Assembly (NCBI GenBank): GCA_044450385.1
Contig: JBIOIZ010000003.1
Span: 10,049 to 74,048, forward strand
Length of the DNA: 64,000 nucleotides
Source of the DNA: Candidatus Dormibacteria bacterium
GTDB lineage: Bacteria; Chloroflexota; Dormibacteria; Aeolococcales; Aeolococcaceae
Direction: 5' to 3'
Part shown: piece by piece, positions 1 to 23,186 of the stretch
Layout: each line of letters begins with the position of its first letter
How positions within the stretch are numbered: the stretch's first letter is position 1
Notes under the pieces: generated by a model
What the model was told of the DNA's origin: nothing
What the model saw: only the letters and a program-made list of their open reading frames with translations
The model's database searches: none
Made by a program: the position numbers and the translations under genes

Positions 1-126
1 CCCGAGCCGATCGGTGAGCTCAGCGATGAGCTGTCGCGACAGCGCGTTGCGGTTGTGTGGCGAATCGAGCGTGACGGTGGCGATGCTCCCGTCCACGCTG
101 AGGTGGACAAGCTCGGTGTCGTTCAT
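1..126 (-). CDS. enoyl-CoA hydratase/isomerase (crotonase) family protein, N-terminal fragment; gene runs off the window start
   Basis: My own translation of the reverse strand from ATG at 126-124 gives MNDTELVHLSVDGSIATVTLDSPHNRNALSRQLIAELTDRLG, a typical crotonase N-terminus. Its start overlaps the stop of the upstream ATPase gene (ATGA at 123-126). Not in the ORF track because there is no stop in the window. Confidence 0.7.
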   Translation of the reverse strand, partial: MNDTELVHLSVDGSIATVTLDSPHNRNALSRQLIAELTDRLG

Positions 127-7070: not shown

Positions 7071-7128
7071 TTGACCCCATCGATCAGTGGCGGCCACAGG
7101 TGACGAACCCGACGATGAGGAGACCGAG

Positions 7129-8157
7129 GTGACAAGAGCAGCGCATCTCGTGGGCAGCATGCCCGGCGACGACGCAGACGACGCGATGCGGCTGGCGGTC
7201 ACCCATCTCGGACCCAAACTTCGTTCCCTGCCCGATGGGGAGACGGGTGACCGGCACAACTGGATCATCCACATCATCGAGGGGATGCGGACCCATCCCG
7301 ACCTCGAGTTGAAGAAGGACGGCGACTGGTCCGACTACGACAAGATCCCCGTGTTTCGCGTGCGTCGAGGCCACACGTTGCGGGCGGAGACTCTCGACTT
7401 CGGACATCTCGCTGCGTTCGAGGAGAACTGGCCGGCATTCGTGAAGGTGCGCGAGGGCCAGAAGAACCCGGCGCTGGCCTTCCAGTCGGGTGTCCCAGGT
7501 GACCTTGACATGGCGCTGTTCACGCTCGGGCCGATCGGCGTGCTGCGTCATCGCGCCGCCTTTCGACGCGCGACCCTCCGCGAGATTCGTGAGATCCACC
7601 GGCGGGGTGGGAAGGATGTCGTCTTTCAGATCGAGATCCCGGCCGAGCTCGCATTTGTCGCTCGGACTCCCGGGCCGTTGCGTCCGTTGATGGCGACACT
7701 CCTCGGCCGCGGCGTTGCCCGTCTGGCACGACAGTCGCCGGCCGGGGCCCGGTTCGGCATCCACCTGTGTCTGGGGGACATGAACCACCGGGCACTGGCT
7801 TCGATGCCTGACACGGCCCCGGTGGTGCTCCTTGCCAACGCAATCGTCAAGGCGTGGCCGGCCGGGCGGCCGCTGGAGTTCGTTCATGCTCCCTTCGCGG
7901 CCGCCGAGAAGGAGCCCCGCACCGACCCCGCGTGGTATGCGCCGCTGAAGCGGCTCAAGCTCCCGGGGACCACTCGATTCGCAGCCGGCTTCGTCCATGA
8001 GGACCAGGACCTCGAGGTGCAGCGACAGCTCCGAAGCCTGATCGAGCGGAACGTCGGGCGTGAGGTCGATGTTTCGACCTCGTGCGGACTCGGGCGGCGT
8101 TCACGTCCGGCAGCGATGGCCGCTCTCGAACGCACGGCGGCGCTGACCGGCGACTGA
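7129..8157 (+). CDS. MetE-like (cobalamin-independent methionine synthase C-terminal / UROD-fold) family protein
   Basis: N-terminal AAHLVGSMPG resembles the THVGSLPR start of the MetE-like family. Putative Zn ligands in GIHLCLGD and STSCGLG. GAGGAG RBS lies 6 nt before GTG 7129 (alternative GTG at 7087). Confidence 0.55.
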   Translation: MTRAAHLVGSMPGDDADDAMRLAVTHLGPKLRSLPDGETGDRHNWIIHIIEGMRTHPDLELKKDGDWSDYDKIPVFRVRRGHTLRAETLDFGHLAAFEENWPAFVKVREGQKNPALAFQSGVPGDLDMALFTLGPIGVLRHRAAFRRATLREIREIHRRGGKDVVFQIEIPAELAFVARTPGPLRPLMATLLGRGVARLARQSPAGARFGIHLCLGDMNHRALASMPDTAPVVLLANAIVKAWPAGRPLEFVHAPFAAAEKEPRTDPAWYAPLKRLKLPGTTRFAAGFVHEDQDLEVQRQLRSLIERNVGREVDVSTSCGLGRRSRPAAMAALERTAALTGD

Positions 8158-8261
8158 TTCGTCGCCGGCGCCCTCGCGACCTGGCATGGCGGCCAGGATC
8201 GTCACCATCCGGTGCTCGCGCCGTCACGAGGGACGAGGTCGTCGCCTTCTCTGTCGTCGGC

Positions 8262-9077
8262 CTAAGGCTGCTTGCGTTGGAATCCTCTTCGACGCGCGCT
8301 GGGAAAGATTCGTGATCGAAGGGGCACGCTGGGTCTCGATCGTCTCGAGACATCCTCAAACGACTCTCCTTCAGGGAGATGGATGGCGAACATCTCGTCG
8401 GGAACATCGACGTCGAAGGCGACCTCGACCATCTCCATGACGAAGAAGGGCAGTCCGCGAAGTCGTGCCTCGGTTCGGAGCAAGATGCCTCGCTCCGCAT
8501 CGACGCTCATCAGGTAGTCGTCAGCGTCAGGTCCGAGCTCACTAAGCGGATCGGGCTCGTGCTCGTTTCGAGCCCGGGGCAGGCCGCGGACCTGAAATAC
8601 CCCTCGCCCATTGAGGGTGTCGCTCCCCATGAGTTCCAGGCGGAGCGCGGTCAGCAGCGGGGCCGTGTCGACAAGCGCCACCGCCGGCCCAAGGCCGAGC
8701 CGGTGGTTGGCGGCACCGCGGTTCGTCATTCCGCCTGTATACGGTGACCAGCTCCACCACGATGCTCCGTCCTGGACTGTCGTCACCGTCCCCGAGCCAG
8801 TCGAGCGTTCCAGGCGCGTGCGGCGCCGACCTTGCATCCACAGCCGCCACCCTTCCTCGGTCTCGTCGGGCTCGGGTGGTTGGTCCGCCAGTGCAACGTA
8901 GCCGGTCCACGCGACGCCGGAGGGATCGCCCGCGCGCATTGCGGCGAAACGACGCTCTCCGATTTCATTGCGACGCGGGTTGTGGGACCACGCGCGCCCA
9001 GTTGCCCGCAAGGTGTTCCAGCGCTCGTCGGAGCCGTGCAGGAGCTCCAGGACCTGACCCAAGTCGCCCATGGTCAT
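8262..9077 (-). CDS. hypothetical protein, possibly LolA/LppX-like beta-fold
   Basis: 271 aa from ATG 9077 (MTMGDLGQVLELLHGSDERWNTLRATG...). The fold assignment is only an impression from sequence pattern. No signal peptide. Confidence 0.4.
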   Translation of the reverse strand: MTMGDLGQVLELLHGSDERWNTLRATGRAWSHNPRRNEIGERRFAAMRAGDPSGVAWTGYVALADQPPEPDETEEGWRLWMQGRRRTRLERSTGSGTVTTVQDGASWWSWSPYTGGMTNRGAANHRLGLGPAVALVDTAPLLTALRLELMGSDTLNGRGVFQVRGLPRARNEHEPDPLSELGPDADDYLMSVDAERGILLRTEARLRGLPFFVMEMVEVAFDVDVPDEMFAIHLPEGESFEDVSRRSRPSVPLRSRIFPSARRRGFQRKQP

Positions 9078-9213
9078 GGAGCCTACGCCCTCGCAGCGAG
9101 AATTGCCGAGGCGCGGCCCACGAGGCTGAGGCGACGACAGGCAGTCGGAGCCACGGCCAATACGGGACGCACCTTGTCGCGATCCCATCTGAAGCTCGCG
9201 TACGCTTGCGCGC

Positions 9214-12200
9214 ATGAATTGCGCGGCCTGTGGAGCGGAGAACCGGGCGGGGCGGCGATTCTGCGGCCAGTGCGGCGCCGCCATGGCCCGACAGTGCCCG
9301 TCCTGCGGAGCCGCCAACGACGAGACCGAGCGTTTCTGCGGGGAATGCGGATCGCCCCTGGCCACCGCACCCCTTGCTGGTCCGGCTCAGGCAGCGCCCA
9401 GGCAGGAGATCCCACCTCCGACCGCGCAGGCGACGTCCGAGCGGCGTCATGTGAGCGTCCTGTTCGCCGACCTCGTCGGCTTCACGCCGCTCTCCGAACA
9501 TCGTGACGCCGAGGACGTTCGCGAGCTCCTGACCCAGTACTTCACCACCGCCCGAACCATCATCGGTCGCTACGGCGGAACGGTGGAGAAGTTCATCGGC
9601 GACGCGGTGATGGCCGTCTGGGGAACGGAGTCGATCCAGGAGAACGACGCCGAGCGTGCGGTGCGCGCCGCGCTCGACCTGGTCGATGCGGTGGCGGTAT
9701 TCGGTGACCACGTGGGTGCGCCGGGCCTGCGGGCACGAGCGGGCGTGCTCACCGGGGAGGCCGCCGTCACGCTGGGCGTCAGCGGCGAGGGGAGCGTCGC
9801 CGGCGACCTCGTCAACACCGCCTCGCGCGTGCAGTCGGTCGCGGAACCAGGAACCGTGTATGTCGGCGATGCGACCAGGCAGGCAAGCGAGGCAGCCATC
9901 ATCTATGAGTCCGTGGGAGCGCACCAGCTGAAGGGCAAGCCCGAGCCGGTGCACCTCTGGCGCGCCGACCGGGTGGTGGCGGCAACGGGCGGGGCGCTGC
10001 GGCCCACCGGGCTCGAACCGCCGTTCGTCGGCCGCGACCGAGAGCTGCGCCTGCTCAAGGAGTTGCTCCATGGCACGGGGGAAGAGCGCACCGCGCGATT
10101 GATGTCGATCGTCGGTGTGGCCGGCGTCGGCAAATCACGGCTGGCATGGGAGTTCTTCAAGTACCTTGACGGGGTTTCCGAGCCGATCTGGTGGCATCGC
10201 GGCCGCTGTCTCGCCTACGGAGAGGGCGTTGCGTACTGGGCGCTCAATGAGATGGTTCGCATGCGCGCGGGCATCATCGAGAACGAGCCACCTGAGAGCG
10301 CTCGCGCCAAGCTTCGCAAGACAGTCGAGGAGTTCGTGCCTGAGGCGGAAGAGCGGCGTTGGGTCGAGCCGCGGCTGGCGCACCTGGTCGGCCTCGAAGA
10401 AGGCCTGGCAACGGACCCGCGGGACCTGTATGCGGCCTGGCGTTTCTTCTTCGAACGTCTGGCGACGCAGTACCTGACTGTTCTGGTTTTTGAGGACCTG
10501 CAGTGGGCCGACACGGGATTGCTCGACTTCATCGAGTACTTGTTGGAGTGGTCGCGGTCGTCGCCGATCCTCGTGATCACGCTCGCGCGACCGGACCTCA
10601 GCGAACGCCGCCCGGGATGGGGAACCGGTAAACGGGGCCTCTCCTCCCTGTACCTCGATCCGCTGAACCCGGATGCGATGAGCCAGCTCCTCGAAGGTCT
10701 CGTCCCGGGGCTCCCGGCGGAGTTGAGCGCCCGGATCCGGGAGCGCGCCGCCGGGATTCCGCTGTATGCGGTTGAGACCGTGCGAATGCTGCTCGACCGC
10801 GGGCTTGTCGTGGAGGAGGGTGGCCGATTCCGAGCCATCGGTTCGCTCGACGCGCTCGAAGTCCCCGAGAGCCTGCACGCGTTGATTGCAGCGCGGCTGG
10901 ACAGCCTCGATCCGACGGAGCGTCAGCTGCTGCAGGATGCAGCCGTGCTCGGAAAGTCGTTCACAGCACACGCGATCACCGCCATCTCCGGCGTCGAGCC
11001 GGCTGAGGTCGCGCGCGTGCTCAGCAGTCTTGCCAACAAGGATATTCTCGCGATCCAGTCGGATCCGAGATCGCCGGAGCGAGGTCAATACGTCTTCGTG
11101 CAGGACCTCGTGCGGAGCGTTGCATACGGAACGCTCGCGCGGCGCGATCGCAAGCTGCGCCATGTTGCCGCCGCGACATATCTCGAGAGTTCCTGGTCCG
11201 AAGAGGAGGAGGTCGCGGAGGTCGTGGCATCGCATCTGGTCGAGGCGCACGCGGCCGACCCCGATGCCGACGACGCGGGAGAGATTCGAGATCGAGCGCG
11301 CGGTGCGCTCGTCCGAGCGGGAGACCATGCGGTGGCGCTTGCCGCGGCCGATTCGGCGCAGTCGTATTTCGAGCGAGCGCTGACGCTGGGCGGGGATAAG
11401 CAGTCACAGGCGGACCTCCACGCACGGGCGGGACTGGCTGCCCAACGACGAGCCCGTCCGACCGCAGCGAGGCAGCACTTCGAAAGCGCCTGCGCTCTCT
11501 ATGAAGGATTGGGTCAGACGGTTCCGACCGCGCGTTACCTTGCGCGCCTGGCTCGCGTCGACCACATGGAGGGGAAGGGCGCAACCGGAATCGAACGGCT
11601 TCGACGGGCCGTGGCGATGCTCGAACGACCCGTCGACGGTGATCAGGATCGGGAGGCCGCGCTCGCCTTGATCAGCGCGCAACTCGGATCGATGCTCTAC
11701 TTCAACGGCGACCTGGATGAAGCGCTTGCGATTGCTGAACGCGCGCTGCAGATCGCGGAGATGGTCGACGTTCCCAACGCATTCGTCACGGCGCTCAACA
11801 CGCGCGCCAATATCCTCGCTTCCCGTGGTAGGCGCGACGAAGCAGAACTGCTCCTCGACGGAGCACTGCGGTTCGCGAACAGCCGGAGCGTCGACACAGA
11901 TATCTTGCAAACCATTCAGGTGAACCTGGCATCAGTTCTGGAAGAGGGTGACCGGCTCGAGGCGTGCCTCGAGCACTACCAGCAGAGTGAGACGCTCGCC
12001 CAGAGGCTGGGTGATCGCGTCGGTGCGGTGTTCGCGCGACTGACACGCGCCAACGCCCTCCTCGAGCTCGGGCGGTGGGACGAATACGCTGCGATGTATC
12101 GCGATTATCTCGAGAATGACGCGCCTGAGATGACGGCGGACCTCACTCTCGCGAGCTTGCTCACCAGCGTCGTCTGGCTACAGCTTCGCCGCGGGGATGT

Positions 12201-12810
12201 GGACGCCGCGCGTTCCGTCGTCGCCGAGTCGGCCAATTACGTCCTGAGCGGGGTTGAGCAAAGCGGGTCCCTCGACGCCGCGCGGGCGGCACTGGCATCC
12301 GCCGAGGGGCGCTCGGTTGACGCGCTGACGTCGGCGGAAGGCGGTCTCCACTCCTGTCTCGACCAGTCGTTTCCTGTCGTAGTCTGCCTCAACCTCGTCG
12401 AGGCTGTCCATGCGGCATTTGCGCTCGGACGGGATGAAAAAGTCGAGGAACTGATTGACACCGTGCGTGCTCACTACCGGCCAGGACGCCAGCGGGCCAT
12501 CGACGCGCACATCCACCGCTGGCGCGCTGCGCTCGCCGCGCATCGCGGCGATGAGGCCGACGCTGCTGATCATTACACGCAGGCGGTGGAGGCGTTTGCA
12601 TCGCTGACCCGGCCTTTCTGGCTCGCGGTCACGCAACTCGAGTACGCCGAATTGCTGATCAACAACGACCACGACAGCGAAGCCGCCGAGTCGCTCATCA
12701 GTGCGCGATCCGGCTTCACCCGCCTCGGTGCAGCACCGTGGATCGAGCGCGTCGACGCTTCAGCGCGGAGGACCCGGGGCGGGATAGTCGAAGTGAGATC
12801 GGCCGTATGA
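9214..12810 (+). CDS. double zinc-ribbon / class III adenylate-guanylate cyclase / AAA (STAND-type) ATPase / TPR-like repeat protein
   Basis: 1198 aa. Two CxxC...CxxCG ribbons at the N-terminus. Cyclase motifs are FADLVGFT, EKFIGDAVMAVWG, GDLVNTASR. P-loop is GVAGVGKSRLAWEF and Walker B is LTVLVFEDLQWAD. Long helical-repeat C-terminus. Confidence 0.9.
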   Translation: MNCAACGAENRAGRRFCGQCGAAMARQCPSCGAANDETERFCGECGSPLATAPLAGPAQAAPRQEIPPPTAQATSERRHVSVLFADLVGFTPLSEHRDAEDVRELLTQYFTTARTIIGRYGGTVEKFIGDAVMAVWGTESIQENDAERAVRAALDLVDAVAVFGDHVGAPGLRARAGVLTGEAAVTLGVSGEGSVAGDLVNTASRVQSVAEPGTVYVGDATRQASEAAIIYESVGAHQLKGKPEPVHLWRADRVVAATGGALRPTGLEPPFVGRDRELRLLKELLHGTGEERTARLMSIVGVAGVGKSRLAWEFFKYLDGVSEPIWWHRGRCLAYGEGVAYWALNEMVRMRAGIIENEPPESARAKLRKTVEEFVPEAEERRWVEPRLAHLVGLEEGLATDPRDLYAAWRFFFERLATQYLTVLVFEDLQWADTGLLDFIEYLLEWSRSSPILVITLARPDLSERRPGWGTGKRGLSSLYLDPLNPDAMSQLLEGLVPGLPAELSARIRERAAGIPLYAVETVRMLLDRGLVVEEGGRFRAIGSLDALEVPESLHALIAARLDSLDPTERQLLQDAAVLGKSFTAHAITAISGVEPAEVARVLSSLANKDILAIQSDPRSPERGQYVFVQDLVRSVAYGTLARRDRKLRHVAAATYLESSWSEEEEVAEVVASHLVEAHAADPDADDAGEIRDRARGALVRAGDHAVALAAADSAQSYFERALTLGGDKQSQADLHARAGLAAQRRARPTAARQHFESACALYEGLGQTVPTARYLARLARVDHMEGKGATGIERLRRAVAMLERPVDGDQDREAALALISAQLGSMLYFNGDLDEALAIAERALQIAEMVDVPNAFVTALNTRANILASRGRRDEAELLLDGALRFANSRSVDTDILQTIQVNLASVLEEGDRLEACLEHYQQSETLAQRLGDRVGAVFARLTRANALLELGRWDEYAAMYRDYLENDAPEMTADLTLASLLTSVVWLQLRRGDVDAARSVVAESANYVLSGVEQSGSLDAARAALASAEGRSVDALTSAEGGLHSCLDQSFPVVVCLNLVEAVHAAFALGRDEKVEELIDTVRAHYRPGRQRAIDAHIHRWRAALAAHRGDEADAADHYTQAVEAFASLTRPFWLAVTQLEYAELLINNDHDSEAAESLISARSGFTRLGAAPWIERVDASARRTRGGIVEVRSAV

Positions 12811-15800
12811 CGTGCGCCGCCTGCGGCACCGAGAATCGCACCGGGGCTCGCTTCTGCGTCCAGTGCGGAGCGATGCTGTCGCGCGCCTGCGCCGCATGCG
12901 GAGCCGCGTACAACGAGGGCGAGCGGTTCTGCGCGTCGTGCGGCGCCCCGCTGTCCGCTGAGTCCGCAGCGCCGAAGCCCTTCGTTGCATCAACTCGACC
13001 CGAGCCATCGTCGCGCCTCTCGGAACGCCGGCATGTCACGGTGCTCTTTGCGGATCTGGTCGGCTTCACACCGCTCTCGCAGCAGCGCGACGCGGAGGAT
13101 GTCCGCGACCTTCTCAGCCGCTATTTCGACACTGCGCGCACCATCATCGCGCGGTATGGCGGGACAGTCGAGAAGTTCATCGGCGACGCGGTGATGGCGG
13201 TGTGGGGGGTTCCCGCGGTCCTGGAAAACGACGCCGAGCGCGCGGTCCGCGCGGCGCTCGAGTTGGTCGACGCCGTCGCCGCCTTCAGTGAAGAGGTCGG
13301 AGCGCCAGGGTTGCGAGCTCGCGCCGGACTGCTGACGGGTGAGGTCGCCGTGAATCTCGGGATCACTGGCGATGGCATGGTCGCGGGGGATCTCGTCAAT
13401 ACGGCTTCACGCGTCCAGACCGTGGCCGAGCCGGGAACTGTCTACGTCGGCGACGCGACCCGCCGCGCAACCGAGGCAGCGATCGTCTACGACGACGCGG
13501 GGATGCACGAGCTCAAGGGCAAGCCCGAGCCGGAGCGCCTGTGGCGCGCGCGCCACGTTGTCGCCGCGGCGGGCGGTGCACTGCGCCCGACCGGTCTGGA
13601 GCCACCGTTCGTCGGCCGAGATCGCGAGCTGCGACTGCTGAAGGAATCGCTGCATGCGACGGGGGAGGAGAAGACGGCACGCCTGCTGTCCATCGTCGGC
13701 CTCGCGGGCATCGGCAAGTCCCGTCTCGCCTGGGAATTCTTCAAGTACATCGACGGCGTCACGGAGACGATCTGGTGGCATCGTGGCCGCTGCCTCGCAT
13801 ACGGCGAAGGCGTTGCGTACTGGGCGTTGAATGAGATGGTGCGCATGCGCGCCGGCATCGTCGAGAACGAATCACCGGAGACGGCGCGAGAGAAATTGCG
13901 GCGGACGGTGGAGGAATTCGTCGAGTCGGGCGAGGAGCGTCGATGGGTGGAGCCGCGCCTTGCCCACCTGGTCGGTCTCGAGGAGCGCGCCGCCGCCGAT
14001 CCGCGCGATCTCTACGCCGCCTGGCGGTTCTTCTTCGAGCGACTCGCGGCGCAGCAGCTCACGGTGCTCGTGTTCGAGGATCTGCAGTGGGCCGACGCGG
14101 GACTGCTCGATTTCATCGAGTATCTCCTCGAGTGGTCGCGCAATTCGCCGATCATGGTGCTGACCCTTGCGCGTCCCGAGCTCGCGGAGCGTCGCGCCGG
14201 GTGGGGCACGGGTAAGCGCGGGCTCACGGCGCTCTACCTCGACCCGCTCTCGCCCGAGGCGATGTCGCAGCTTCTTGCGGGGATGGTGCCGGGGCTGCCA
14301 AACGAACTCAGCGCCCGCATTCTCGAGCGCGCAGCGGGAGTGCCCCTCTATGCAGTCGAAACGGTGCGGATGCTGCTCGATCGCGGCCTGCTCGTGGAGA
14401 AGGACGGTGCATACCACGTGGAGGGCTCGTTGGCGTCACTCGAGGTCCCCGAGACGCTCCACGCGCTCATCGCCGCGCGCCTCGACAGCATTGGTAGCGC
14501 TGAGCGACAGCTCCTGCAGGACGCAGCTGTCGTCGGCAAGTCCTTCACCGCCGCAGGGCTTCGGGCAATCACGACTCTGCCGGCCGACACCGTCGAGCAA
14601 TGTCTTGCGAGCCTGGTCAACAAGGACCTGCTGTCGATCCAGTCGGATCCGCGGTCGCCCGAACGTGGCCAGTACGTGTTCGTGCAGGATCTGGTCAGAA
14701 GCGTGGCGTATGGCACCCTCGCGCGACGCGATCGCAAGGCGCGCCACCTGGCTGTCGCCGCATACCTCGAGAGCTCATGGAGTGACGAGGAGGAAGTGGC
14801 CGAAGTCGTTGCGTCACACCTTGTCGAGGCGTATGAAGCAGACACTGACGCTGCCGACGCCGAGGGGCTCCGTGATCGAGCCCGCGACGCCCTGGTTCGC
14901 GCGGGCGATCACGCGGCGTCACTCGGAGCGGGCGAGTCGGCGCAGCATTATTTCGAGAGCGCGCTGCACCTCGCGGTCCCAGCGGACCGCGCCGGCTTGC
15001 TCGTGCGAGCAGGCGAGATGGCGTGGCTCCAGGTGAACGCCGACGCTGCGCGGAAGCACCTCGAGGAGGCGGTCGCGCTGCACATGGCAGCGGGCCAGAT
15101 CGGAGCGGCGGCTCGTGTATCTGTGACGCTGGCGGCGATCGACGCGCATGAGATGAAAGTGGGGAACGCCGCTGACCGCATGGAGCGTGCCTTCGCCACA
15201 CTCCGGGAAGCGGAAGCGACCGCACCGGACTACGAAACCGATCTCAGCGTCGTTGCAGCAGAGGTTGGTCGGAGGCTGTTCCTCGCGGGTCGAAACCAGG
15301 GCGTTGCGATCGAGCGCCTCGAACTCGCACTTGGGATCGCCGAGCGTAACGGCGATTCACGGGTCTTCTGCGAGGCGATCAACACCAAGGGGCTCATCCT
15401 TGGCGAGCGAGGTCGCCGTCAGGAAGGCCGCGCCCTGCTCACCGCGGCGCTCGACCACGCGGTCGCCGCCGACCTTCACGATGCGGCGCTGCGCGCGTAC
15501 AACAACCTCGCCGCCGACACGCAGGGATCCGATCCAGTGCGAGCTTCGGCATACGTGCAGGCCGGGACCGCCCTCGCGAGGTTGATGGGCAGGCGCCGCG
15601 AGGAGGTGATGTTCGTCGCCGGCGAAATGTGCGTGCTCATCGATCTCGGCCGGTGGGACGCAGCGATCCAGGGGCTGACTGACCTCCTTGGAACCGACGA
15701 GCAGTGGATCTCGGAGTCGGACCTTGCCAACGAGCTCGTCGTGGTCGGGTGGGTGTATCTCTGGCGTGGTCAGATCAGCGAGGCACGGAGCATTATCGAG

Positions 15801-16391
15801 CGACTCGATGAGGTCTACAGGCGCTCCGCACCTGACACGCAACTCATCTATGACGCAGTCCGGGCAGGGATCCTGCGTGCGCAGGGTCGCAACGGTGAGG
15901 CGGTCACGCTTCTCGCAGACGCGAACACGAGGGGGAGCGACTCGCTGGACTACCTCGGCCTCAGCCGGTGGGTACTCATCGAGAGCGTGGAGGCAGCGTT
16001 CGCTGCGGGCGACCTGCACTCTGTCCGACGGCAGCTCGATCTCGCCGCCACGCGCCTCTCGCCGGTCGTCGCTCCGATCGTCCACGCACAGATCCAGCGA
16101 TTCCACGCGCGCGTCGCGGCGGTCGAGTACCGGAACGACGATGTTGTCCCCAATTATCAAGCCGCGATCGAAACGTTCCAGCAGCGACAGATGCCATTCT
16201 GGCTCGCGGTGACTCGCCTGGAGCTCGCCGAGTGGTTGATGCAGCACGGGAAAGCTGCCGATGCCGACGGGATGCTGGCCGAGGCGCGAGCGACGTTCGC
16301 CGAACTGCGCGCGGCGCCCTGGATCGAGCGCGCTGACGCTGCCGCCGGAGGCGCGGCCGCCTCAAAAGAACAGACAGCGCTCCCCGCCTGA
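12807..16391 (+). CDS. double zinc-ribbon / class III cyclase / AAA (STAND-type) ATPase / TPR-like repeat protein (paralogue of the upstream gene)
   Basis: ATG 12807 overlaps the upstream stop (ATGA). Product MTCAACGTENRTGARFCVQCG... has the same motif set (FADLVGFT, EKFIGDAVMAVWG, GDLVNTASR, GLAGIGKSRLAWEF). Near-identical to the paralogue through about 700 aa, then divergent. Confidence 0.9.
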   Translation: MTCAACGTENRTGARFCVQCGAMLSRACAACGAAYNEGERFCASCGAPLSAESAAPKPFVASTRPEPSSRLSERRHVTVLFADLVGFTPLSQQRDAEDVRDLLSRYFDTARTIIARYGGTVEKFIGDAVMAVWGVPAVLENDAERAVRAALELVDAVAAFSEEVGAPGLRARAGLLTGEVAVNLGITGDGMVAGDLVNTASRVQTVAEPGTVYVGDATRRATEAAIVYDDAGMHELKGKPEPERLWRARHVVAAAGGALRPTGLEPPFVGRDRELRLLKESLHATGEEKTARLLSIVGLAGIGKSRLAWEFFKYIDGVTETIWWHRGRCLAYGEGVAYWALNEMVRMRAGIVENESPETAREKLRRTVEEFVESGEERRWVEPRLAHLVGLEERAAADPRDLYAAWRFFFERLAAQQLTVLVFEDLQWADAGLLDFIEYLLEWSRNSPIMVLTLARPELAERRAGWGTGKRGLTALYLDPLSPEAMSQLLAGMVPGLPNELSARILERAAGVPLYAVETVRMLLDRGLLVEKDGAYHVEGSLASLEVPETLHALIAARLDSIGSAERQLLQDAAVVGKSFTAAGLRAITTLPADTVEQCLASLVNKDLLSIQSDPRSPERGQYVFVQDLVRSVAYGTLARRDRKARHLAVAAYLESSWSDEEEVAEVVASHLVEAYEADTDAADAEGLRDRARDALVRAGDHAASLGAGESAQHYFESALHLAVPADRAGLLVRAGEMAWLQVNADAARKHLEEAVALHMAAGQIGAAARVSVTLAAIDAHEMKVGNAADRMERAFATLREAEATAPDYETDLSVVAAEVGRRLFLAGRNQGVAIERLELALGIAERNGDSRVFCEAINTKGLILGERGRRQEGRALLTAALDHAVAADLHDAALRAYNNLAADTQGSDPVRASAYVQAGTALARLMGRRREEVMFVAGEMCVLIDLGRWDAAIQGLTDLLGTDEQWISESDLANELVVVGWVYLWRGQISEARSIIERLDEVYRRSAPDTQLIYDAVRAGILRAQGRNGEAVTLLADANTRGSDSLDYLGLSRWVLIESVEAAFAAGDLHSVRRQLDLAATRLSPVVAPIVHAQIQRFHARVAAVEYRNDDVVPNYQAAIETFQQRQMPFWLAVTRLELAEWLMQHGKAADADGMLAEARATFAELRAAPWIERADAAAGGAAASKEQTALPA

Positions 16392-16396
16392 CGGCT

Positions 16397-18184
16397 GTGA
16401 CCGATTCGGTAGTCGTCACGGACCAGGCTGAGGCGCCGAAGGCGAAGGTCGGCTATCGCGCCCTCTTCCGCAATCGAGACTATCGCTTCCTGTACTCCGG
16501 GCTCGCGATCTCGATGAGCGGTTCGTGGGCATACAACGTCGCCCTGGTGGTGTTCGTCTTCAACGCGACGCATTCGCCCGCCTGGGTGGCCGCGGCGTCG
16601 ATGACGCGGTTTCTCTGCGCGCTGGTTGCCAGTCCGTTCGGCGGATTGATCGCCGACCGGATCGAGCGCATGCGGTTGATGGTCACGCTCGACTCCATCT
16701 CGACAATGCTCCAGGCCGCGCTCGCCGTCGTCGCAGCGCTGAACGGGCCGGTCATCATCGCGATCGTTCTCGCGGCCCTGACGTCGGTCACCGGCTCTTC
16801 CTACGACCCTGCAGCCCGGGCTGCAACGCCGGTCATCGTTGGCGAGGAGTACCTGGCGGCTGCCAACAGCGCGCAGTCGGCCGTGGAAAACCTCTCGGTG
16901 ATCGTCGGTCCCGCGCTTGCAGGCGTGTTGCTCCTGTTCACCCCGCCGGCCGCCGTCTTCGGGATCAACGCCGCCTCCTTCGCCTTGTCGGCCCTTTTGG
17001 TTTCTCGCATACGTGTCAAGAGCCGCCCCGCCGACATCACCGAGGGCGGCACCGTCAGTCCGCTCAAGCAGATGGCGGGTGGTATCGCCGCATTCTTCGA
17101 TTCCCCGACCGTGATGCTGCTCGCCGGATTCAGCATCCTCGCGAGTTTCGTCTACGGCACCGACACCGTCCTGTTCGTCGTGATCAGCCGGGACCAGCTC
17201 GGCACCGGGAGCGTCGGGTACGGCTACCTGCTGGCGGCTCTCGGCGTTGGCGGCATCCTGATCGCCGGCTTCATGAACCGCATCGCGGCCGCGCGGCGAC
17301 TCGGAGCGATCATCGTCGCCGGCATGGCAGTGTACTGCCTGCCCACCGCATTGCTGACGATCGTGCATGCACCGTGGATCGCCTTTCTCCTTGAGGTCGC
17401 CCGCGGCGCGGGGACCATCGTCGTCGACGTCCTTGCAATCACCGCGTTGCAGCGCCTCGTCAAGCCCGATGTGGTCGCGCGCGTCTTCGGCGTGTTCTTC
17501 GCACTCGTCCTCGCGGCGATCGCGCTCGGCGCCCTGCTCATGCCGATCCTGCTCGGAACGGTGGGGTTGACCACGACGCTGCTGATCATGGGATTCGCGA
17601 TACCGGCACTCACCGCAGCGTCGTACCCCTGGCTCCGAACTCTCGACACCCGGGCGCTCGGAGAGCTGTCCGCGATCGAGCCGATCGTCGCCAGGCTCCA
17701 GGCCCTCGACATCTTTGCCGGCGCCACCCGCGCCGCGTTGGAGAACATCGCCCGGTCAGCGGTGGAGGAGTCCATTCCACCCGGGAGCGTCCTCATTCGC
17801 GAGGGCGCCGACGCGGATGACTTCTTCGTGCTGACGTCGGGCGAGGTGGGGGTGACCGCGGCCGGTGAATCCGGTGTGGAACGATCCCTGGGCAAGCTCG
17901 AGCCGCCGAATTACTTCGGCGAGATCGGTCTTCTGGAGCACCGGCCGAGGACAGCCACTGTGACGACGATCACGCCGTGCACGATCCTGCGTATCAACGG
18001 CACCACGTTCGTGGATGCCCTGACGCTCGCTCCGCTGTCGCCCAGCGCCCTCGGCGGCGTGCAGATGCGACTCGCCCGCACGCATCCGTCAGTGAAGATG
18101 ACCTTTGGACAGAACGGCGAGCCGCAAGGATCTGATGTGCCGTCCGGGGAACGTGAGGGCGCTGACTCGCCGTCCGGTCGCTGA
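16397..18184 (+). CDS. MFS transporter fused to a C-terminal cyclic-nucleotide-binding domain
   Basis: 595 aa with a GTG start 5 nt after the cyclase stop. About 12 TM helices with an MFS-like pattern. The C-terminal roughly 130 aa have a cNMP-binding beta-roll with phosphate-binding cassette FGEIGLLEHRPRTATV. Confidence 0.85.
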   Translation: MTDSVVVTDQAEAPKAKVGYRALFRNRDYRFLYSGLAISMSGSWAYNVALVVFVFNATHSPAWVAAASMTRFLCALVASPFGGLIADRIERMRLMVTLDSISTMLQAALAVVAALNGPVIIAIVLAALTSVTGSSYDPAARAATPVIVGEEYLAAANSAQSAVENLSVIVGPALAGVLLLFTPPAAVFGINAASFALSALLVSRIRVKSRPADITEGGTVSPLKQMAGGIAAFFDSPTVMLLAGFSILASFVYGTDTVLFVVISRDQLGTGSVGYGYLLAALGVGGILIAGFMNRIAAARRLGAIIVAGMAVYCLPTALLTIVHAPWIAFLLEVARGAGTIVVDVLAITALQRLVKPDVVARVFGVFFALVLAAIALGALLMPILLGTVGLTTTLLIMGFAIPALTAASYPWLRTLDTRALGELSAIEPIVARLQALDIFAGATRAALENIARSAVEESIPPGSVLIREGADADDFFVLTSGEVGVTAAGESGVERSLGKLEPPNYFGEIGLLEHRPRTATVTTITPCTILRINGTTFVDALTLAPLSPSALGGVQMRLARTHPSVKMTFGQNGEPQGSDVPSGEREGADSPSGR

Positions 18185-18219
18185 GCTCGAGGGCACGTCG
18201 CGCTGCCTCGGCGTGAGCG

Positions 18220-19026
18220 TTACTCAGCGTTGCTCGCGACCGCCATGAGCACCGTCTTCATCTGGAACGGCGTCAAGCCGGGGTGTTTCCCAAGGATGCG
18301 CGCGGTCAGTCCCGAGACGTGCGGGGCCGCAAAGCTGTTCCCGGTCGCCCGGATCGTCTTCCCGCCCAGCCATGCCACCTCGAGGTCGATGCCCGGGGCT
18401 CCGAACTCGACGGGTGGCGCCGGATTGTAGTCGAGGCGGAAGGGATCTCGACCGCTGTGCGCAGCGACGGAGAACACCGACGCGTACTGCGACGGATAGC
18501 TTGGCGCGCGCACGTTGTTCACCGCGCACACCACCATTGCGCTCTTGAAGTACGCGGCGTCGGTAATCTCGTGGAAGAGGCCGTAGTAATCGATGCGCGA
18601 GGTGCTGAGACTCATGTTGAGCACATGCATGCCATTGGCGAGCGCCCAGCGCATGCCCTCCGCGAAGACGGCACCGCGTCCAGTCAGCTTCTCGCCGAGC
18701 ACGCGCACGCTGTACAGCTCAGCCTCTGGAGCGACCGCGCGAATGATCGCGGCGCACGCGGTGCCGTGTCCAAACAGATCCTTGTGCGGGCCTTCGATGA
18801 CTCGTGCTCCGCGAGGAGCGGTCGGGTCCGCGAGGATGACCGCGCCGCCCGCCACCGATCGCACGCCCGGATGCGACGCGTCGATGCCACTGTCAATCAC
18901 CGCCACCCTGACGCCGGCACCGGTACTGTCGCCCCACGCCCAGTCACGCGTGATCGCTCCGGGGAGCGAGGTGTCGACGTGCTGCAGCGTGCCCGGCTCG
19001 AACTGCCACGCCCAAGCCGGCTTCAT
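18220..19026 (-). CDS. S8 (subtilisin) family serine peptidase, minimal form without signal peptide or propeptide
   Basis: Catalytic triad motifs VAVIDSGID (Asp), HGTACAAII (His), GNSFAAPHVSG (Ser). Only 268 aa. Confidence 0.85.
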   Translation of the reverse strand: MKPAWAWQFEPGTLQHVDTSLPGAITRDWAWGDSTGAGVRVAVIDSGIDASHPGVRSVAGGAVILADPTAPRGARVIEGPHKDLFGHGTACAAIIRAVAPEAELYSVRVLGEKLTGRGAVFAEGMRWALANGMHVLNMSLSTSRIDYYGLFHEITDAAYFKSAMVVCAVNNVRAPSYPSQYASVFSVAAHSGRDPFRLDYNPAPPVEFGAPGIDLEVAWLGGKTIRATGNSFAAPHVSGLTARILGKHPGLTPFQMKTVLMAVASNAE

Positions 19027-19757
19027 CGTTGCTGTTGACGCGCGTAGGCGGTGAAGCCGGCGGCGATGCGCACGGCGGCCCGGCGCTCCTCGGCGCCCAG
19101 CACGCCGAGATCGTGAAAGAGGACGGCGAGCTCGGCGAGTTCCGAGCGCGCACCCGGGGCGGCAGCTGCTCGCGCCTCGAGTGCGGCACGCATGTCCTGA
19201 TCGGGTGCGACCAGTGCGGCGGCCTCGAAGAGCGCCTTCCCGAAGTTGGTGAAGATTCGCGAGCTTTCCACGGCGAGGGTCGCTTGACGCGCGAACAGCG
19301 CGAGCAACTCCATGTCGTCGGTTCCCTCGCCACCGCGCTGGCGCCGGTCGAGCACTTCGATGACGCCGAATGTGCGCCGCTCGCTCTCGAGGGGCATTGC
19401 CATGATGGAACTCGGGACGTACCCGGTGGTCGCCGCGACGTCGGCGGCGAATCGAGGATCCTGACGGACGTCATCGATGGCGATCGGTTGACCCGCGACA
19501 ACCGCCCACCCAGCAATGCCACGATCGGCTGCGATGCGGAGCCCGACGGTCGCCTCGGCGCCCCTGCCCGCGGCGACGCGGAACTCCAGTTCGTCCTGAT
19601 CGTCGTCGAGCAATGCGATGGAGCATGCTGCGGCGTCGAACGCGAGCAGCGCGGTTTCGACGACCGCCTGAAGAAACTCCTCGCCCCCGCGCGGACGGAG
19701 GACCGGACCCAGGTCCGCCGCGAGCTGAGCGAGGTCGGCGAGCGGGTCGTCTTCCAT
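19023..19757 (-). CDS. GAF domain-containing protein
   Basis: 244 aa from ATG 19757. GAF-like core (CSIALLDDDQDELEFRVAAG...GIAGWAVVAGQPIAIDDVRQDPRF...SIMAMPLESERRTFGVIEVLD) plus a helical tail. Its stop overlaps the S8 start (ATGA at 19023-19026). Confidence 0.75.
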   Translation of the reverse strand: MEDDPLADLAQLAADLGPVLRPRGGEEFLQAVVETALLAFDAAACSIALLDDDQDELEFRVAAGRGAEATVGLRIAADRGIAGWAVVAGQPIAIDDVRQDPRFAADVAATTGYVPSSIMAMPLESERRTFGVIEVLDRRQRGGEGTDDMELLALFARQATLAVESSRIFTNFGKALFEAAALVAPDQDMRAALEARAAAAPGARSELAELAVLFHDLGVLGAEERRAAVRIAAGFTAYARQQQR

Positions 19758-19835
19758 GCTGATCGGGACTGTACACACGGCACGCGCCGCAGCGGATAGG
19801 CTTGGGCATCGGGTCGACGGCAGGGGACGGCAGCT

Positions 19836-20522
19836 ATGAGCAGAGACGACGCGGCGCTGCTGCAGAACACGGCGCTCTTTGGAGCGATGGCTCCCGACGC
19901 GCTCGAGCGGCTCGCCGACAAGACACACCGCCGCTCGTACCCACGCGGCGCCGTGATCTTCCGCGAGGACGACGCCGGTGACTCACTCAGTGTCGTCGTC
20001 GCGGGGCTGGTTAAGGTATATCGGACCTCCCCTGATGGTGACGAGATGGTCCTCGTGACCATGGGACCCGGAGCCGTATTCGGCGAGCTGCCCGCGATCG
20101 ATGGCGGTTTGCGGTCCGCATCCGCAGCGGCCGTCGAGGCGACCACGGTGCTCACGCTCACCCGCACCGCGCTCCTCGACGCGCTGCGTGAATCGCCCGA
20201 GCTCGTCGAGCGTCTGCTCCGCTCGATGGGCTCGATGGTTCGCCGGCTCACGGACCAGGCCGCCGACCTCGTGTTCCTCGATCTCCATGGACGCGTCGCG
20301 AAGCTGCTGCTCGCGCTCGCCGAAGAACGCGGCATCGCCCATCCGAACGGCCAGACCCTCGAACTGGGGATGACCCAGACGGACCTCGCCAACATGGTTG
20401 GCGGGTCACGCCAGAGCGTGAACCAGGTGCTGCGCTCCTTCGAGCGCCTCGGATACCTCGAACTGGACGGGCGGCGCATCCTGATCCGTGAACCCGATTT
20501 GCTCGAGCGGCGCGCAGGATAA
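19836..20522 (+). CDS. Crp/Fnr family transcriptional regulator
   Basis: 228 aa. N-terminal cNMP-binding domain (FGELPAIDGGLRSASAAAV). C-terminal HTH (MTQTDLANMVGGSRQSVNQVLRSFERLGY). Divergent from the GAF-S8 operon. Confidence 0.9.
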   Translation: MSRDDAALLQNTALFGAMAPDALERLADKTHRRSYPRGAVIFREDDAGDSLSVVVAGLVKVYRTSPDGDEMVLVTMGPGAVFGELPAIDGGLRSASAAAVEATTVLTLTRTALLDALRESPELVERLLRSMGSMVRRLTDQAADLVFLDLHGRVAKLLLALAEERGIAHPNGQTLELGMTQTDLANMVGGSRQSVNQVLRSFERLGYLELDGRRILIREPDLLERRAG

Positions 20523-20645
20523 GCATCGACTGTCAGGTCGCCGACACAATTCCTGTCAGCAAGGCGACTGACCGGGCTCCGTGGGGGTGACAGAATCGTC
20601 TCAGCAGCAAGAACGGCGGTGCAATCCGCCAGAGGAGACAGGGCA

Positions 20646-20819
20646 GTGACCACTGAAGACACAGGCGACGAGACCCGCGAAGTCGACGATGACGTCGAGG
20701 GACATCGCGTGCGCATGAGCTCCGATCCCGACTTCGCGGCCCGGGCACCGTCGAACTCGGTGCCCGCCGGCGATGAGGTCAACAACGACGACGTTGAGGG
20801 TCATATCCGGCGGACGTAG
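20646..20819 (+). CDS. small acidic protein with two (D/N)DDVEGH repeats
   Basis: AGAGGAG RBS (20631-20637) lies 8 nt before GTG 20646. 57-aa product VTTEDTGDETREVDDDVEGHRVRMSSDPDFAARAPSNSVPAGDEVNNDDVEGHIRRT. Confidence 0.45.
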   Translation: MTTEDTGDETREVDDDVEGHRVRMSSDPDFAARAPSNSVPAGDEVNNDDVEGHIRRT

Positions 20820-20973: not shown

Positions 20974-22371
20974 TCATTCTCGTATGGGGATGATGACCTC
21001 AAACGTGGCGCCCTCGGCTCCGTTGTCATCGACGGCGATGCGGCCGCCGTGGACCTCGGCGATGACCCTGCAGAGGGCAAGGCCAAGCCCGGCACCTCCG
21101 GTCGATGTCGCTCGGGCTGCGTCACCGCGGGTGAAGCGCCGAAATATCGAGTCCCGCATGTCAGCGGGAATCCCGGGGCCGGTGTCTGAAACGCGGATAT
21201 GCCAGGTCCCATCCTGCATCTCGGCCCTGACTCCCACGCGTCCGCCCGCCGGCGTGTGCCGGACGGCGTTGTCAAGGAGGTTGTGGAGCAGGCTGCGGAG
21301 CAACTCAGGATCGCAATCGACCAATCCCTCATCCACCAGGTCGACATCGATTGCGATGTCCCGCGCGCGAGCGACGGTCCGCCACCGTTCCGCCGCCTCC
21401 TCAAGCAGATCTCCTGCGTCGACGCGTTGCAGCAGCGGTTGCAGCGCGCCCGCATCGGAGCGCGCGAGAATCAGCAGCCGGTTGACCAGCCGTCGGAGGC
21501 GTTCGACTTCTGCAAGCGCGACGCGCTCACTTGCCGTGTACTCCTGTGCGGTCCGCGCCCGGCGCAGGGACACCTCGAGCTCGGCCTGCATGAGAGCCAG
21601 CGGCGCGCGCAACTCGTGAGCCGCGTCTGCTGTGAACTGTTGGAGCGAGTCGAACGCCACCTCGAGGCGCGCCAGCATGTCGTTGAATGTCACGGCCAGC
21701 TCACCGAGCTCGTCGTCGGGCAGGCTGAGTTCGACGCGCCGGTGCAGATCGTGCTCGCTGATGTCGCGTGCTGTCGCGGCCATCAACCGCACCGGGCGCA
21801 GTGCGCGTCCGGCGAGTGCGTATGACAGCGCAACCACAGCAATCGCCAGCACAACAACGACACCCACCAGCAGCGCCGCGACCTCGAAGAGCGTCTGCTG
21901 CAGGTCGCCGACGCCTTGTCCCACGACCACCGCGTCGACTGTCGTCCCATCCAGTCGCACGGGAGTCGCTCTGATGCGTTCGGGCTGTGCGGTGGTTGCA
22001 AGCGTCGCAGCAACCACGCTGGCGCGGCTGATGGCGGTGCGGGCGGCGGCTTGAGCACTCGCTCCCGGAACCACGATCCCGGTACGCGAAAGCACCTTGC
22101 CTTTGGCGTCGAGCACGATGACACCGACGGCGGCACCCTGCTGCGTGTCAACAAGGGGATCGCCCCCTTGAAATGAAATGACTCCGTTGGAGTCCTGAAG
22201 ATTTGCGAGGAGGCTCTGCGTGTAGGCCGCGAGGCTCGCGTCGACGCCGTCGTACTGAATATGTGCAAACGTCAACCAGAACGCTCCTGCGGCAGCTGAC
22301 GCGATGATGAGGAAGACCGCCCCGACGGCCGCCGTCAGGCGGACGCGCGTTCGCGCGAAGAATCCGCGCAC
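20974..22371 (-). CDS. sensor histidine kinase (TM - periplasmic loop - TM - HAMP - HisKA - HATPase_c)
   Basis: H-box FTADAAHELRAPLA, N-box LLHNLLDNAVRHT, G-boxes DTGPGIP and GGAGLGLAL. Start placed at GTG 22371 (VRGFFARTRVRLTAAVGAVFLII), which overlaps the regulator gene's end. Confidence 0.85.
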   Translation of the reverse strand: MRGFFARTRVRLTAAVGAVFLIIASAAAGAFWLTFAHIQYDGVDASLAAYTQSLLANLQDSNGVISFQGGDPLVDTQQGAAVGVIVLDAKGKVLSRTGIVVPGASAQAAARTAISRASVVAATLATTAQPERIRATPVRLDGTTVDAVVVGQGVGDLQQTLFEVAALLVGVVVVLAIAVVALSYALAGRALRPVRLMAATARDISEHDLHRRVELSLPDDELGELAVTFNDMLARLEVAFDSLQQFTADAAHELRAPLALMQAELEVSLRRARTAQEYTASERVALAEVERLRRLVNRLLILARSDAGALQPLLQRVDAGDLLEEAAERWRTVARARDIAIDVDLVDEGLVDCDPELLRSLLHNLLDNAVRHTPAGGRVGVRAEMQDGTWHIRVSDTGPGIPADMRDSIFRRFTRGDAARATSTGGAGLGLALCRVIAEVHGGRIAVDDNGAEGATFEVIIPIRE

Positions 22372-23042: not shown

Positions 23043-23186
23043 GCCGCGAGTCTGGCGCCGGAACCTGACGTCAAGGTGACACACGTTGGGTGCCAGGGGT
23101 CAGGACCGGGTCAGGTGTGCCCACGAGCATGGGTCTCAAGAGATCCGGCCACCGGCTGCCGGTTCGACAGCACGAAGGAGAACCCG

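Follow-up and report, generated by a model that had tools for sequence, protein, structure and literature searches.

Sensor cyclases, a GAF-subtilase pair and a Crp regulator linked to a repeat-peptide gene: a conserved and possibly cAMP-controlled module in Candidatus Dormibacterota

A 64,000-nucleotide stretch of a Candidatus Dormibacteria bacterium contig (JBIOIZ010000003.1, assembly GCA_044450385.1, positions 10,049 to 74,048; hereafter the window) carries a gene cluster in which two tandem sensor cyclases (cycA and cycB) precede a major facilitator superfamily (MFS) permease with a C-terminal cyclic-nucleotide-binding (CNB) domain, a GAF protein with a small subtilase of family S8, a Crp-family regulator and a short gene for an acidic repeat peptide. 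The G+C content of the window is 64-71%, its proteins match metagenome-assembled genomes (MAGs) named Candidatus Dormibacterota in homologue searches, and the genes flanking the cluster are core genes, namely methionyl-tRNA synthetase, two TyrRS/TrpRS-type genes, an M1 aminopeptidase and nuo genes. A first-pass annotation, read from the DNA alone, had listed the genes up to crp; that list stands and every domain it named was recovered with Pfam, but it missed the zinc ribbons of the cyclases, two palindromes downstream of crp and a 57-amino-acid open reading frame (ORF), with which the cluster extends to position 20819. Its statement that every gene encodes a writer or reader fold for cyclic nucleotides is too broad, as S8 has neither and the GAF protein is a candidate reader only. 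For comparison, a scan of genome contigs with the MFS-CNB protein yielded 35 loci from species representatives, annotated with tblastn, of which 33 are from Dormibacterota; a metagenome scan with a cyclase alignment gave 80 loci, and look-ups centred on S8 added L119-L123 (survey loci are cited by L numbers).

The cycA gene (9214-12810, plus strand) encodes 1198 amino acids comprising a class III cyclase domain, a STAND-type NTPase and tetratricopeptide repeats (TPRs) (Guanylate_cyc, E = 1.1e-20; AAA_16, 2.8e-21; TPR_12, 7e-16). Its tandem paralogue cycB (12807-16391, plus strand; 1194 amino acids) has the same architecture (Guanylate_cyc, 2.2e-21; AAA_16, 1.7e-20), and the stop codon of cycA overlaps the start codon of cycB as ATGA. 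A double zinc ribbon (DZR, Zn_Ribbon_1) forms the N-terminus of both proteins. The cyclase domains belong to class III, with PF00211 scores of 74.5 and 76.7 bits against a gathering cut-off of 21.9. Their catalytic residues are intact, as had been claimed: the metal-binding aspartates D86 and D130, the lysine K126 and the Asn/Arg pair N201/R205 are invariant in an alignment of 15 paralogues and coincide with the equivalent positions in solved class III cyclases (the Cya2 and RhGC structures). The second purine-specificity position, by contrast, is occupied by Ser in cycA and by Met in cycB and the consensus, rather than by Asp or Thr, so that cAMP is probably, but not provenly, the product. 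The Walker A motif GxGKS (G304-K307-S308) is likewise invariant among the aligned paralogues and the Walker B motif VLVFEDLQWAD, of the hhhhED type, is conserved, which together with the AAA_16 match assigns the proteins to the STAND NTPases with TPR arrays. The best NCBIfam match of both is TIGR03903, which spans the cyclase and STAND parts, although the scores of 211 and 226 bits are far below its 705-bit cut-off.

CycA and CycB are 59% identical overall and about 33% identical in the TPR region. Orthologues of cycA (77-78% identity) occupy the same position in L008, L012-L014 and L032, while cycB belongs to a separate orthologue group, and at least four cyclase orthologue groups take part in the Dormibacterota loci. 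Across these groups the cyclase and STAND parts are highly conserved and the TPR parts only about 30% identical, the pattern expected of a diversifying family of sensors. Head-to-tail tandem arrays of such cyclases also occur in metagenome contigs, with six genes in L044 and four each in L043 and L052, where no other gene of the module is in view.

Five nucleotides separate the cycB stop codon from the GTG start codon of the MFS-CNB gene (16397-18184, plus strand), which encodes a DHA3/EntS-like permease of exporter type (Pfam MFS_3/MFS_1) with a C-terminal cNMP_binding domain (1.2e-19). The NCBIfam matches of the permease, TIGR00900 and an EntS-like model, are both below cut-off. Its phosphate-binding cassette reads FGEIGLLEHRPRTATV, and the GE...R[ST]A signature of this cassette is canonical in both CNB domains of the cluster, those of the permease and of Crp. 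The fusion is not peculiar to the window, as more than 100 homologues carry it at 77-93% identity, and in L109, L119, L121 and L123 the MFS-CNB gene stands at the head of an MFS-GAF-S8 operon. A stand-alone CNB protein of 135-145 amino acids accompanies the module in many lineages (L002, 11741-12166, minus strand; L109, 18016-18423; L119, 7000-7434; L120, 7944-8369; L121, 2796-3233; L123, 19098-19532). This gene is missing from the gap between MFS-CNB and S8 in the window, which measures only 35 nt (18185-18219).

The S8 and GAF genes lie convergent to the permease on the minus strand. The subtilase (18220-19026; 268 amino acids; Peptidase_S8, 4.4e-28) has the motifs of an active enzyme, with the catalytic Asp in VAVIDSGID, His in HGTACA and Ser in GNSFAAPHV, as well as the oxyanion Asn in NMS. 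It aligns with mature subtilisin BPN' from residue 22 onward (E = 8e-31) and has neither signal peptide nor propeptide, in agreement with the earlier description of a leaderless protease. Its nearest NCBIfam models are QhpE, a small peptide-maturation protease, and mycosin, both below cut-off, and members of the family share 65-70% identity across MAGs that carry the labels Dormibacterota, Actinomycetota and Dehalococcoidia. The GAF protein (19023-19757; 244 amino acids; Pfam GAF, 2.4e-17) consists of a GAF domain and a helical tail of about 80 residues; its stop codon overlaps the S8 start codon as ATGA, so that the two genes are translationally coupled, and it diverges from crp. A start at 19928, that of the longest ORF, is less likely than 19757, since it would overlap crp and homologues are 240-259 amino acids long; the junctions are as the first-pass annotation had described them.

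The proposal that the GAF protein reads a cyclic nucleotide finds some support. Its best solved relatives are the cAMP/cGMP-binding GAF domains of CyaB2 (1ykd, 8.5e-17), followed by those of PDE5, PDE2 and PDE10. The motifs GIAGW, PRFA, TGYxP and GVIxxLDR are conserved across phyla, and the protein keeps AD-x-GIAG and the first Thr of TGY. In the GAF domains of PDE2A and CyaB2 the ligand-contacting residues include a second phosphate-contacting Thr, and this residue is replaced by Pro throughout the present family (TGYxP versus TG[FY]xT), for which reason binding of a cyclic nucleotide is plausible and unproven. An alignment of the GAF tail with 4mcw had hinted at a remnant of an HD-type phosphohydrolase (HD-GYP; FHDLG versus MHDIGK), which was rejected as the His-Asp pair is not conserved in homologues.

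The Crp-family regulator (19836-20522, plus strand) combines a cNMP_binding domain (2e-23) with HTH_Crp_2 (5.7e-17), as expected of cAMP-responsive members of the CRP/FNR family, and scores 97 bits against the NCBIfam CRP model PRK11753 (cut-off 266). Its phosphate-binding cassette is FGELPAIDGGLRSASA (FGEL...RSA). Immediately downstream, the stretch that separates crp from the peptide gene contains two palindromes of 16 bp, of the form TGTC-N8-GACA, TGTCAGGTCGCCGACA (20531-20546) and TGTCAGCAAGGCGACT (20554-20569), 23 bp apart from centre to centre, which are putative Crp operators. They are the only two perfect matches to this pattern in the window, which makes Crp look like a dedicated local rather than a global regulator. 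The pair precedes the peptide gene with the same 23-bp spacing in other Dormibacterota and in L107, L109, L119, L121 and L122. An alignment of 15 loci further points to a -10-like element, CAGAAT (20591-20596), a hairpin in the 5' untranslated region, CGGCGG...CCGCC (20614-20631), and a Shine-Dalgarno sequence, AGGAG (20633-20637), all on the plus strand and with roles that are predicted from position and conservation. In Rfam and consensus scans nothing inside the cluster was matched apart from this hairpin, as a terminator-like site on the minus strand. If transcription starts about 7 nt past CAGAAT, the operator centres would fall near -41.5 and -64.5, a geometry that resembles CRP-activated promoters.

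The recognition helix of this Crp reads SRQSVNQ, and SRQSVN is found in all lineages (RQSVN was read from the DNA of L107, L109 and L119). It thus has RQS where E. coli CRP has RET (SRETVG), and the half-site is TGTCA where that of CRP is TGTGA. In E. coli CRP, Glu181 reads the G:C pair of TGTGA. It is plausible that the Gln in the helix and the altered half-site have co-varied.

The gene that follows the palindromes (20646-20819, plus strand) encodes an acidic peptide of 57 amino acids, MTTEDTGDETREVDDDVEGHRVRMSSDPDFAARAPSNSVPAGDEVNNDDVEGHIRRT, in which D-D-V-E-G-H occurs twice and SDPDF stands in the centre. The start codon is GTG, and AGGAG is located 8 nt upstream of it. The gene calls of three lineages include an ORF of about 63 amino acids beside the GAF-S8 and Crp genes, and 20646-20819 is its window counterpart; a public collection also calls the latter as a gene (P0241), and its G+C content by codon position (0.72/0.45/0.78) is like that of other genes of the window. 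Neither Pfam nor NCBIfam has a family for the peptide (E up to 1). A word-index search for homologues gave no more than 3 proteins. From 1.84 billion representative proteins, a profile search recovered 12 real relatives, all of them short and unannotated; another hit, P0245, was discarded as a spurious low-complexity match. The relatives contain 2-5 copies of [D/E]-[D/E]-[V/T]-[E/A]-G-H with variable spacers in between, for example DDDDVEGHGSRPR five times in L109 and DDTEGHGYKRE four times in L107, and this variation in copy number resembles that of multi-core precursors.

The distribution of the peptide follows that of the protease. In a six-frame scan of 124 loci (1.7 Mb), in which ORFs with at least two repeat motifs were counted, 21 loci had both S8 and a peptide ORF, 6 had S8 only, 97 had neither and none had the peptide without S8 (Fisher p ~1e-18, for loci that are not phylogenetically independent), and GAF-S8 accompanied every peptide-type ORF. 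Of the six loci with S8 alone, three are cut off by a contig or locus edge, L122 carries a degenerate copy and L101 is unexplained; the S8-only locus L014 has a variant peptide copy and an operator pair at its edge. The MFS-CNB/GAF/S8 operon of L119 and L121 is headed by a further repeat-peptide gene with upstream operator sites, which ties peptide, exporter and protease together directly. The repeat peptide is a candidate substrate, or precursor, of the S8 protease.

The linkage of the remaining genes is conserved as well. Among the 34 Dormibacterota loci (the 33 scanned loci and the window), a cyclase gene abuts the MFS-CNB gene within about 100 nt in 24, being upstream and co-directional in 16, with its C-terminal end toward the MFS gene, and downstream and convergent in 8. 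The two are separated only by a gene for a hydrolase of the metallo-β-lactamase (MBL) fold in five of 34, the cyclase lies beyond the S8-GAF-Crp block in two, and no cyclase was found in three. At least one cyclase-domain match is located within 10 kb of MFS-CNB in 29 of the 34, and a partial cyclase at the contig end in 2 more, for 31 loci with cyclase sequence in that range. Comparison with L002, which has the same flanks and no cyclases, had suggested that the cyclases are an insertion specific to the window, an idea overturned by the 35-locus survey, where the MFS gene adjoins a cyclase in most species. Since the only two cyclase genes of the window both adjoin the MFS-CNB gene, and since this linkage is conserved elsewhere, the association exceeds chance; the examination of neighbourhoods across related genomes, which the first-pass annotation had proposed as a check, thus came out in favour of linkage.

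The association also survives deep divergence. The distant contigs L107, L109 and L113 carry all five families (cyclase, MFS-CNB, GAF, S8 and Crp) in other orders, and L101 carries them except for MFS-CNB; identity of these four contigs to the window is 41-48% for the cyclase, 49-60% for S8, 35-48% for GAF and 32-40% for Crp. With L120, L121 and L123 included, reordered module families are found at 32-60% identity. L109 is one tight operon of two cyclases, MFS-CNB, GAF, S8, Crp, peptide and CNB-only gene, with a TAGATG junction, a GTG/TGA overlap and an 11-nt overlap. An Actinomycetota MAG (L119) has MFS-CNB, GAF and S8 in one operon, together with Crp and a CNB-only protein and no cyclase within 10 kb, while L120-L123 hold variants of the module that include cyclases, the stop codon of the cyclase overlapping the crp start in L123. 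Typical Dormibacterota versions of the cluster also occur in records that name Candidatus Saccharimonadales (L008) and Candidatus Acidiferrales (L027), probably by errors of binning or labelling.

The MBL-fold hydrolase (Lactamase_B_2, with an HLHWDH motif and a weak likeness to RNase Z/ElaC) sits between the divergent cyclase and MFS-CNB genes in a second Dormibacterota clade, for instance in L019 (8873-9715, minus strand); in all, it was noted in L019, L001, L015, L017-L026, L028, L031, L034, L040, L107, L109, L115 and L124, the last from Miltoncostaea. It thus recurs in distant loci of the module and outside MAGs. No such gene is present in the 64-kb window. The enzyme could be the cyclic-nucleotide phosphodiesterase of the module.

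Relatives in cultured bacteria were found by tblastn of plasmid records with the S8 protein, two replicons being informative. An 816-kb replicon of Miltoncostaea oceani (Thermoleophilia) holds genes for a sigma factor, S8, GAF, an 88-amino-acid ORF, the MBL-fold hydrolase and an MFS protein with a CNB tail. The 88-amino-acid ORF (L124, 10581-10847) has no D-D-V-E-G-H repeats and contains a helical region that recalls, by eye, the leaders of Nif11 and aroma-sacti peptides; it may represent a different type of precursor served by the S8-GAF pair. On a 727-kb linear plasmid of Streptomyces sp. NBC_00184, a zinc-ribbon cyclase-STAND gene, S8 (47.5% identity) and GAF stand in a row inside a cluster for a peptide that is made on ribosomes and modified after translation (RiPP). 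This cluster includes two radical S-adenosylmethionine (SAM) enzymes, one of them of the SPASM RiPP-maturase type, an EntS-like MFS protein, a protein with an aroma-sacti cluster domain (NF045560, related to StsA sactipeptide precursors) and an 87-amino-acid precursor ORF in which EPEV[IV]AH-x-E-...-WCG-x-HQE occurs three times. The [acidic]-V-x-[G/A]-H that precedes each core parallels, by resemblance of motif, the D-D-V-E-G-H of the window peptide. RiPP biosynthesis is known to employ leader peptidases of family S8 in the cytoplasm and S8 proteases that cleave at recurring recognition sequences, such as ElxP and PatA/PatG (PMC10885120), and that review does not mention GAF domains or control by cyclic nucleotides; among the papers listed in a search of the RiPP literature, none mentioned a GAF domain and only one adenylate cyclase.

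We consider it somewhat better than an even bet (a probability of roughly 0.55) that the cluster is a conserved module for cAMP signalling with the repeat peptide as its output, the peptide being made, cut and exported under cAMP control. The sequences and their comparison establish the domains, the intact catalytic and binding motifs, the conserved linkage and operators and the strict co-occurrence of peptide and GAF-S8, whereas the biochemical steps, the nucleotide, the cleavage site, the direction of transport and the role of the exported peptide are inferred. That the genes form one circuit had already been suggested by the first-pass annotation, and the persistence of their linkage through rearrangement in Dormibacterota and through deep divergence speaks for it. 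In such a circuit, the TPR arrays of the paralogous receptors would sense ligands, upon which the STAND modules would oligomerise and pair the cyclase domains into active dimers that produce cAMP. Crp loaded with cAMP would bind the dual TGTC-N8-GACA operators and activate the peptide promoter, while the GAF protein would control or guide the propeptide-less subtilase in the cytoplasm. The subtilase may cleave the peptide at the [D/E]-[D/E]-[V/T]-[E/A]-G-H repeats, probably after the His. Pockets of the subtilisin type would accommodate Val or Thr at P4, Gly at P2 and His at P1. Finally, the CNB tail of the EntS-like permease would gate export of the product, provided that transport is outward.

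Several observations weigh against this interpretation. Just 3-6 residues follow the last motif, which makes it ambiguous which fragment would be the product, and no modifying enzyme (radical SAM, cyclodehydratase or similar) is encoded in the window cluster or its immediate flanks, so that the peptide product would be unmodified. A nearby cyclase is missing from some module loci (L002, L030, L035 and L119), and the link between cyclase and module is facultative in some lineages; conversely, about 70 of the 80 cyclase-centred metagenome loci lack other module genes, many of them on short contigs. The closest relative, L004, has a cyclase and the MFS gene and no S8, GAF or Crp within 10 kb. The Ser/Met at the second specificity position leaves the nucleotide unsettled, and with the Pro in place of the second Thr the GAF protein may bind something other than cAMP. 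Moreover, the surveyed loci are mostly MAG contigs that are not independent of each other phylogenetically. In L004 itself (OY970355.1; MFS-CNB 95% identical), cycB is truncated to a 286-amino-acid remnant, and the interval from the MFS gene to an FAD monooxygenase gene holds no S8, GAF, Crp, peptide, histidine kinase or response regulator gene, indicating that the content of the module varies even among near relatives.

A more far-reaching version of the same idea, which we regard as tentative and rather improbable, is a peptide signalling loop in which cAMP licenses transcription, cleavage and export, and the released acidic fragments are sensed in turn by the TPR arrays of the cyclases, giving a positive feedback like that of quorum sensing. 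The released fragments would recall the EEVD-type ligands of TPR domains. Such a loop would be widespread among Dormibacterota and Actinomycetota of soils that have not been cultured, possibly also among Chloroflexota, and the S8-GAF-cyclase cassette would have been recruited into radical-SAM RiPP clusters of Streptomyces for both maturation and control. Peptide quorum sensing of the RRNPP type involves a secreted precursor with a signal sequence, processing outside the cell, import by Opp and a TPR receptor for the mature peptide. The cluster has TPR receptors as well as a small peptide and an S8 protease; the peptide and protease have no signal sequences and the cluster contains no Opp genes.

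The absence of a signal sequence from the peptide, together with that of modifying enzymes nearby, would suit a different arrangement, in which the cAMP module is real while the peptide acts inside the cell as a regulator or ligand (a metal binder, a DNA mimic or a scaffold) and GAF-S8 degrades some other target. The motif is rich in Asp, Glu and His and could bind metal, the last repeat is placed at the extreme C-terminus with no obvious core beyond it, and the adjacent MFS gene is missing from the module loci L120 and L122. However, an invariant six-residue motif surrounded by variable spacers and present in variable copy number is typical of the protease sites of multi-core precursors, the operon of MFS, GAF and S8 in L119 and L121 is headed by a peptide gene, and the Streptomyces homologue lies in what is recognisably a RiPP cluster, with an analogous motif repeated in its precursor. 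An intracellular role is a minority possibility, though one to be taken seriously beside a peptide that is cut and exported.

It appears unlikely that the neighbourhood is inherited synteny of signalling genes that are abundant but not functionally coupled, with some cyclases placed beside cNMP-binding proteins by chance. The cyclase family is indeed very large, with tandem arrays of up to six genes and most members without module neighbours, and the Dormibacterota loci are related, so that part of the shared order reflects descent. Yet the linkage outlasts inversions and reordering within the phylum and recurs at 32-60% identity in other orders with overlapping stop and start codons; the two cyclases of the window are exactly those beside MFS-CNB, and peptide-type ORFs were found in 0 of 97 loci without S8.

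The cluster is very improbable as an anti-phage system of the Pycsar or bacterial nucleotide-binding leucine-rich-repeat (NLR)-like STAND type, a parallel drawn by the first-pass annotation as speculation. In such a system infection would be detected by TPR/STAND and signalled by the cyclase, with the CNB-membrane protein and the protease as effectors. The effector-NTPase-repeat layout does resemble NLR-like proteins, a class III-like cyclase adjoins a membrane protein with a CNB domain as in Pycsar, and PADLOC models for PycC (E = 1e-15 to 1e-19) and for PycTIR/effectors match the cyclase and CNB domains, respectively, but these matches cover only the shared folds, no Avs/NLR or other system model is matched, the cyclases are STAND-TPR proteins of about 1200 amino acids with a purine-type Lys, the permease is a 12-transmembrane MFS protein of an efflux rather than a pore-forming effector family, and the genes lie in a core-chromosomal context, with no integrases or defence genes within the cluster and no defence-island genes in its flanks, and encode proteins that are 65-95% identical across whole phyla, where defence systems are typically patchy and fast-evolving. 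The systems described in a 2020 paper on conflict systems differ from this cluster (PMC7159879).

Each of the domain families is known, and cyclase-STAND-TPR proteins are known from actinobacteria. Multidomain class III cyclases of the type of M. tuberculosis Rv0386, Rv1358 and Rv2488c join a cyclase to a STAND/ATPase module. Like the Rv0386 type and TIGR03903 (TOMM system kinase/cyclase fusion protein), the window cyclases have an N-terminal cyclase domain, an AAA_16-type STAND domain and helical or TPR repeats; unlike them, they lack a kinase domain or LuxR-type helix-turn-helix, and they possess the N-terminal double zinc ribbon and the Ser/Met substitution. The name of TIGR03903 already implies a tie to ribosomal-peptide clusters. 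The regulator is similar to E. coli CRP and to the mycobacterial Crp Rv3676 in its domains (CNB and HTH_Crp_2) and in 16-bp palindromes of CRP geometry (TGTNN-N6-NNACA), and one putative site about -41.5 from the predicted transcription start recalls class II CRP promoters.

The attachment or association of a CNB domain with a peptide or drug exporter is shared with the mycobacterial MFS-CNB proteins Rv3239c and Rv3728 and with TIGR03896 (bacteriocin-type transport-associated), which is matched at 34-38 bits against a cut-off of 161. Rv3239c and Rv3728 are much larger multidomain fusions and are uncharacterised. As in the systems of cyanobactin PatA/PatG and of ElxP, a small S8 protease stands beside a short precursor-like peptide with 2-5 recognition motifs and an exporter, although the match to the PatA model, at only 19.7 bits, stays under the 421-bit cut-off. 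In contrast to those systems, the protease has a dedicated GAF partner, and expression, processing and export all carry sensor domains of the cyclic-nucleotide type. The cluster has a precursor-like peptide, a protease and an exporter, and falls outside RiPP clusters as defined by a precursor with a modification enzyme.

The multi-phylum module, the repeat-peptide family, the GAF-S8 partnership and the dedicated pairing of Crp and operators appear undescribed in the literature that was searched. Searches found no report that combines Dormibacterota with adenylate cyclase, nothing relevant on GAF, subtilisin and Crp together or on the DVEGH/DTEGH motifs, and no report of cAMP gating the maturation or export of a ribosomal peptide via GAF and CNB domains. 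Gating of this kind may represent a form of post-translational control. Dormibacterota abound in permafrost, peat and desert soils, and almost nothing is known of their signalling. The cluster offers a concrete, testable circuit. It also suggests a likely role for STAND-TPR adenylyl cyclases, a large family of mostly orphan members that has expanded in mycobacteria and Streptomyces as well. In addition, it defines an unannotated repeat-peptide family with a motif like a protease site, and matches a Crp variant that has the recognition helix RQS to a predicted operator with the half-site TGTCA. The homologous cassette in the Streptomyces RiPP cluster is an entry point in a culturable organism.

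Of the genes around the cluster, a HAMP/HisKA histidine kinase (20974-22509, minus strand) and an OmpR-type response regulator (22335-23084, minus strand) are convergent to the peptide gene. An ORF on the opposite strand (21199-21825, plus strand) passes codon-bias filters and is probably spurious, being antisense to the kinase gene. Upstream of cycA, about 985 nt (8161-9145) between a conserved 356-amino-acid gene (7087-8157) and cycA are absent from L004, where the flanks join directly. This segment contains a plausible minus-strand ORF (8262-9077; 271 amino acids), for which Pfam gave no match and the fetched loci no homologue. It is more plausible than the plus-strand ORFs 8379-8747 and 8744-9217, which have an Arg/Ser/Pro-rich, off-frame-like composition and no homologues and were rejected as genes coupled to cycA. 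A stand-alone AAA_16/STAND-like NTPase of 389 amino acids without cyclase or repeat domain is encoded at 123-1292 (minus strand), and its syntenic position is kept in L002, L007, L029, L035 and L041. Farther downstream, two genes for class I aminoacyl-tRNA synthetases of the Trp/Tyr type (tRNA-synt_1b; 38125-39321, plus strand, and 39325-40452, minus strand) converge with 3 nt between them, and a cobalamin riboswitch (Rfam RF00174, 92.6 bits; 48036-48209, minus strand) precedes a minus-strand ORF with a weak prenyltransferase/squalene-cyclase-like match.

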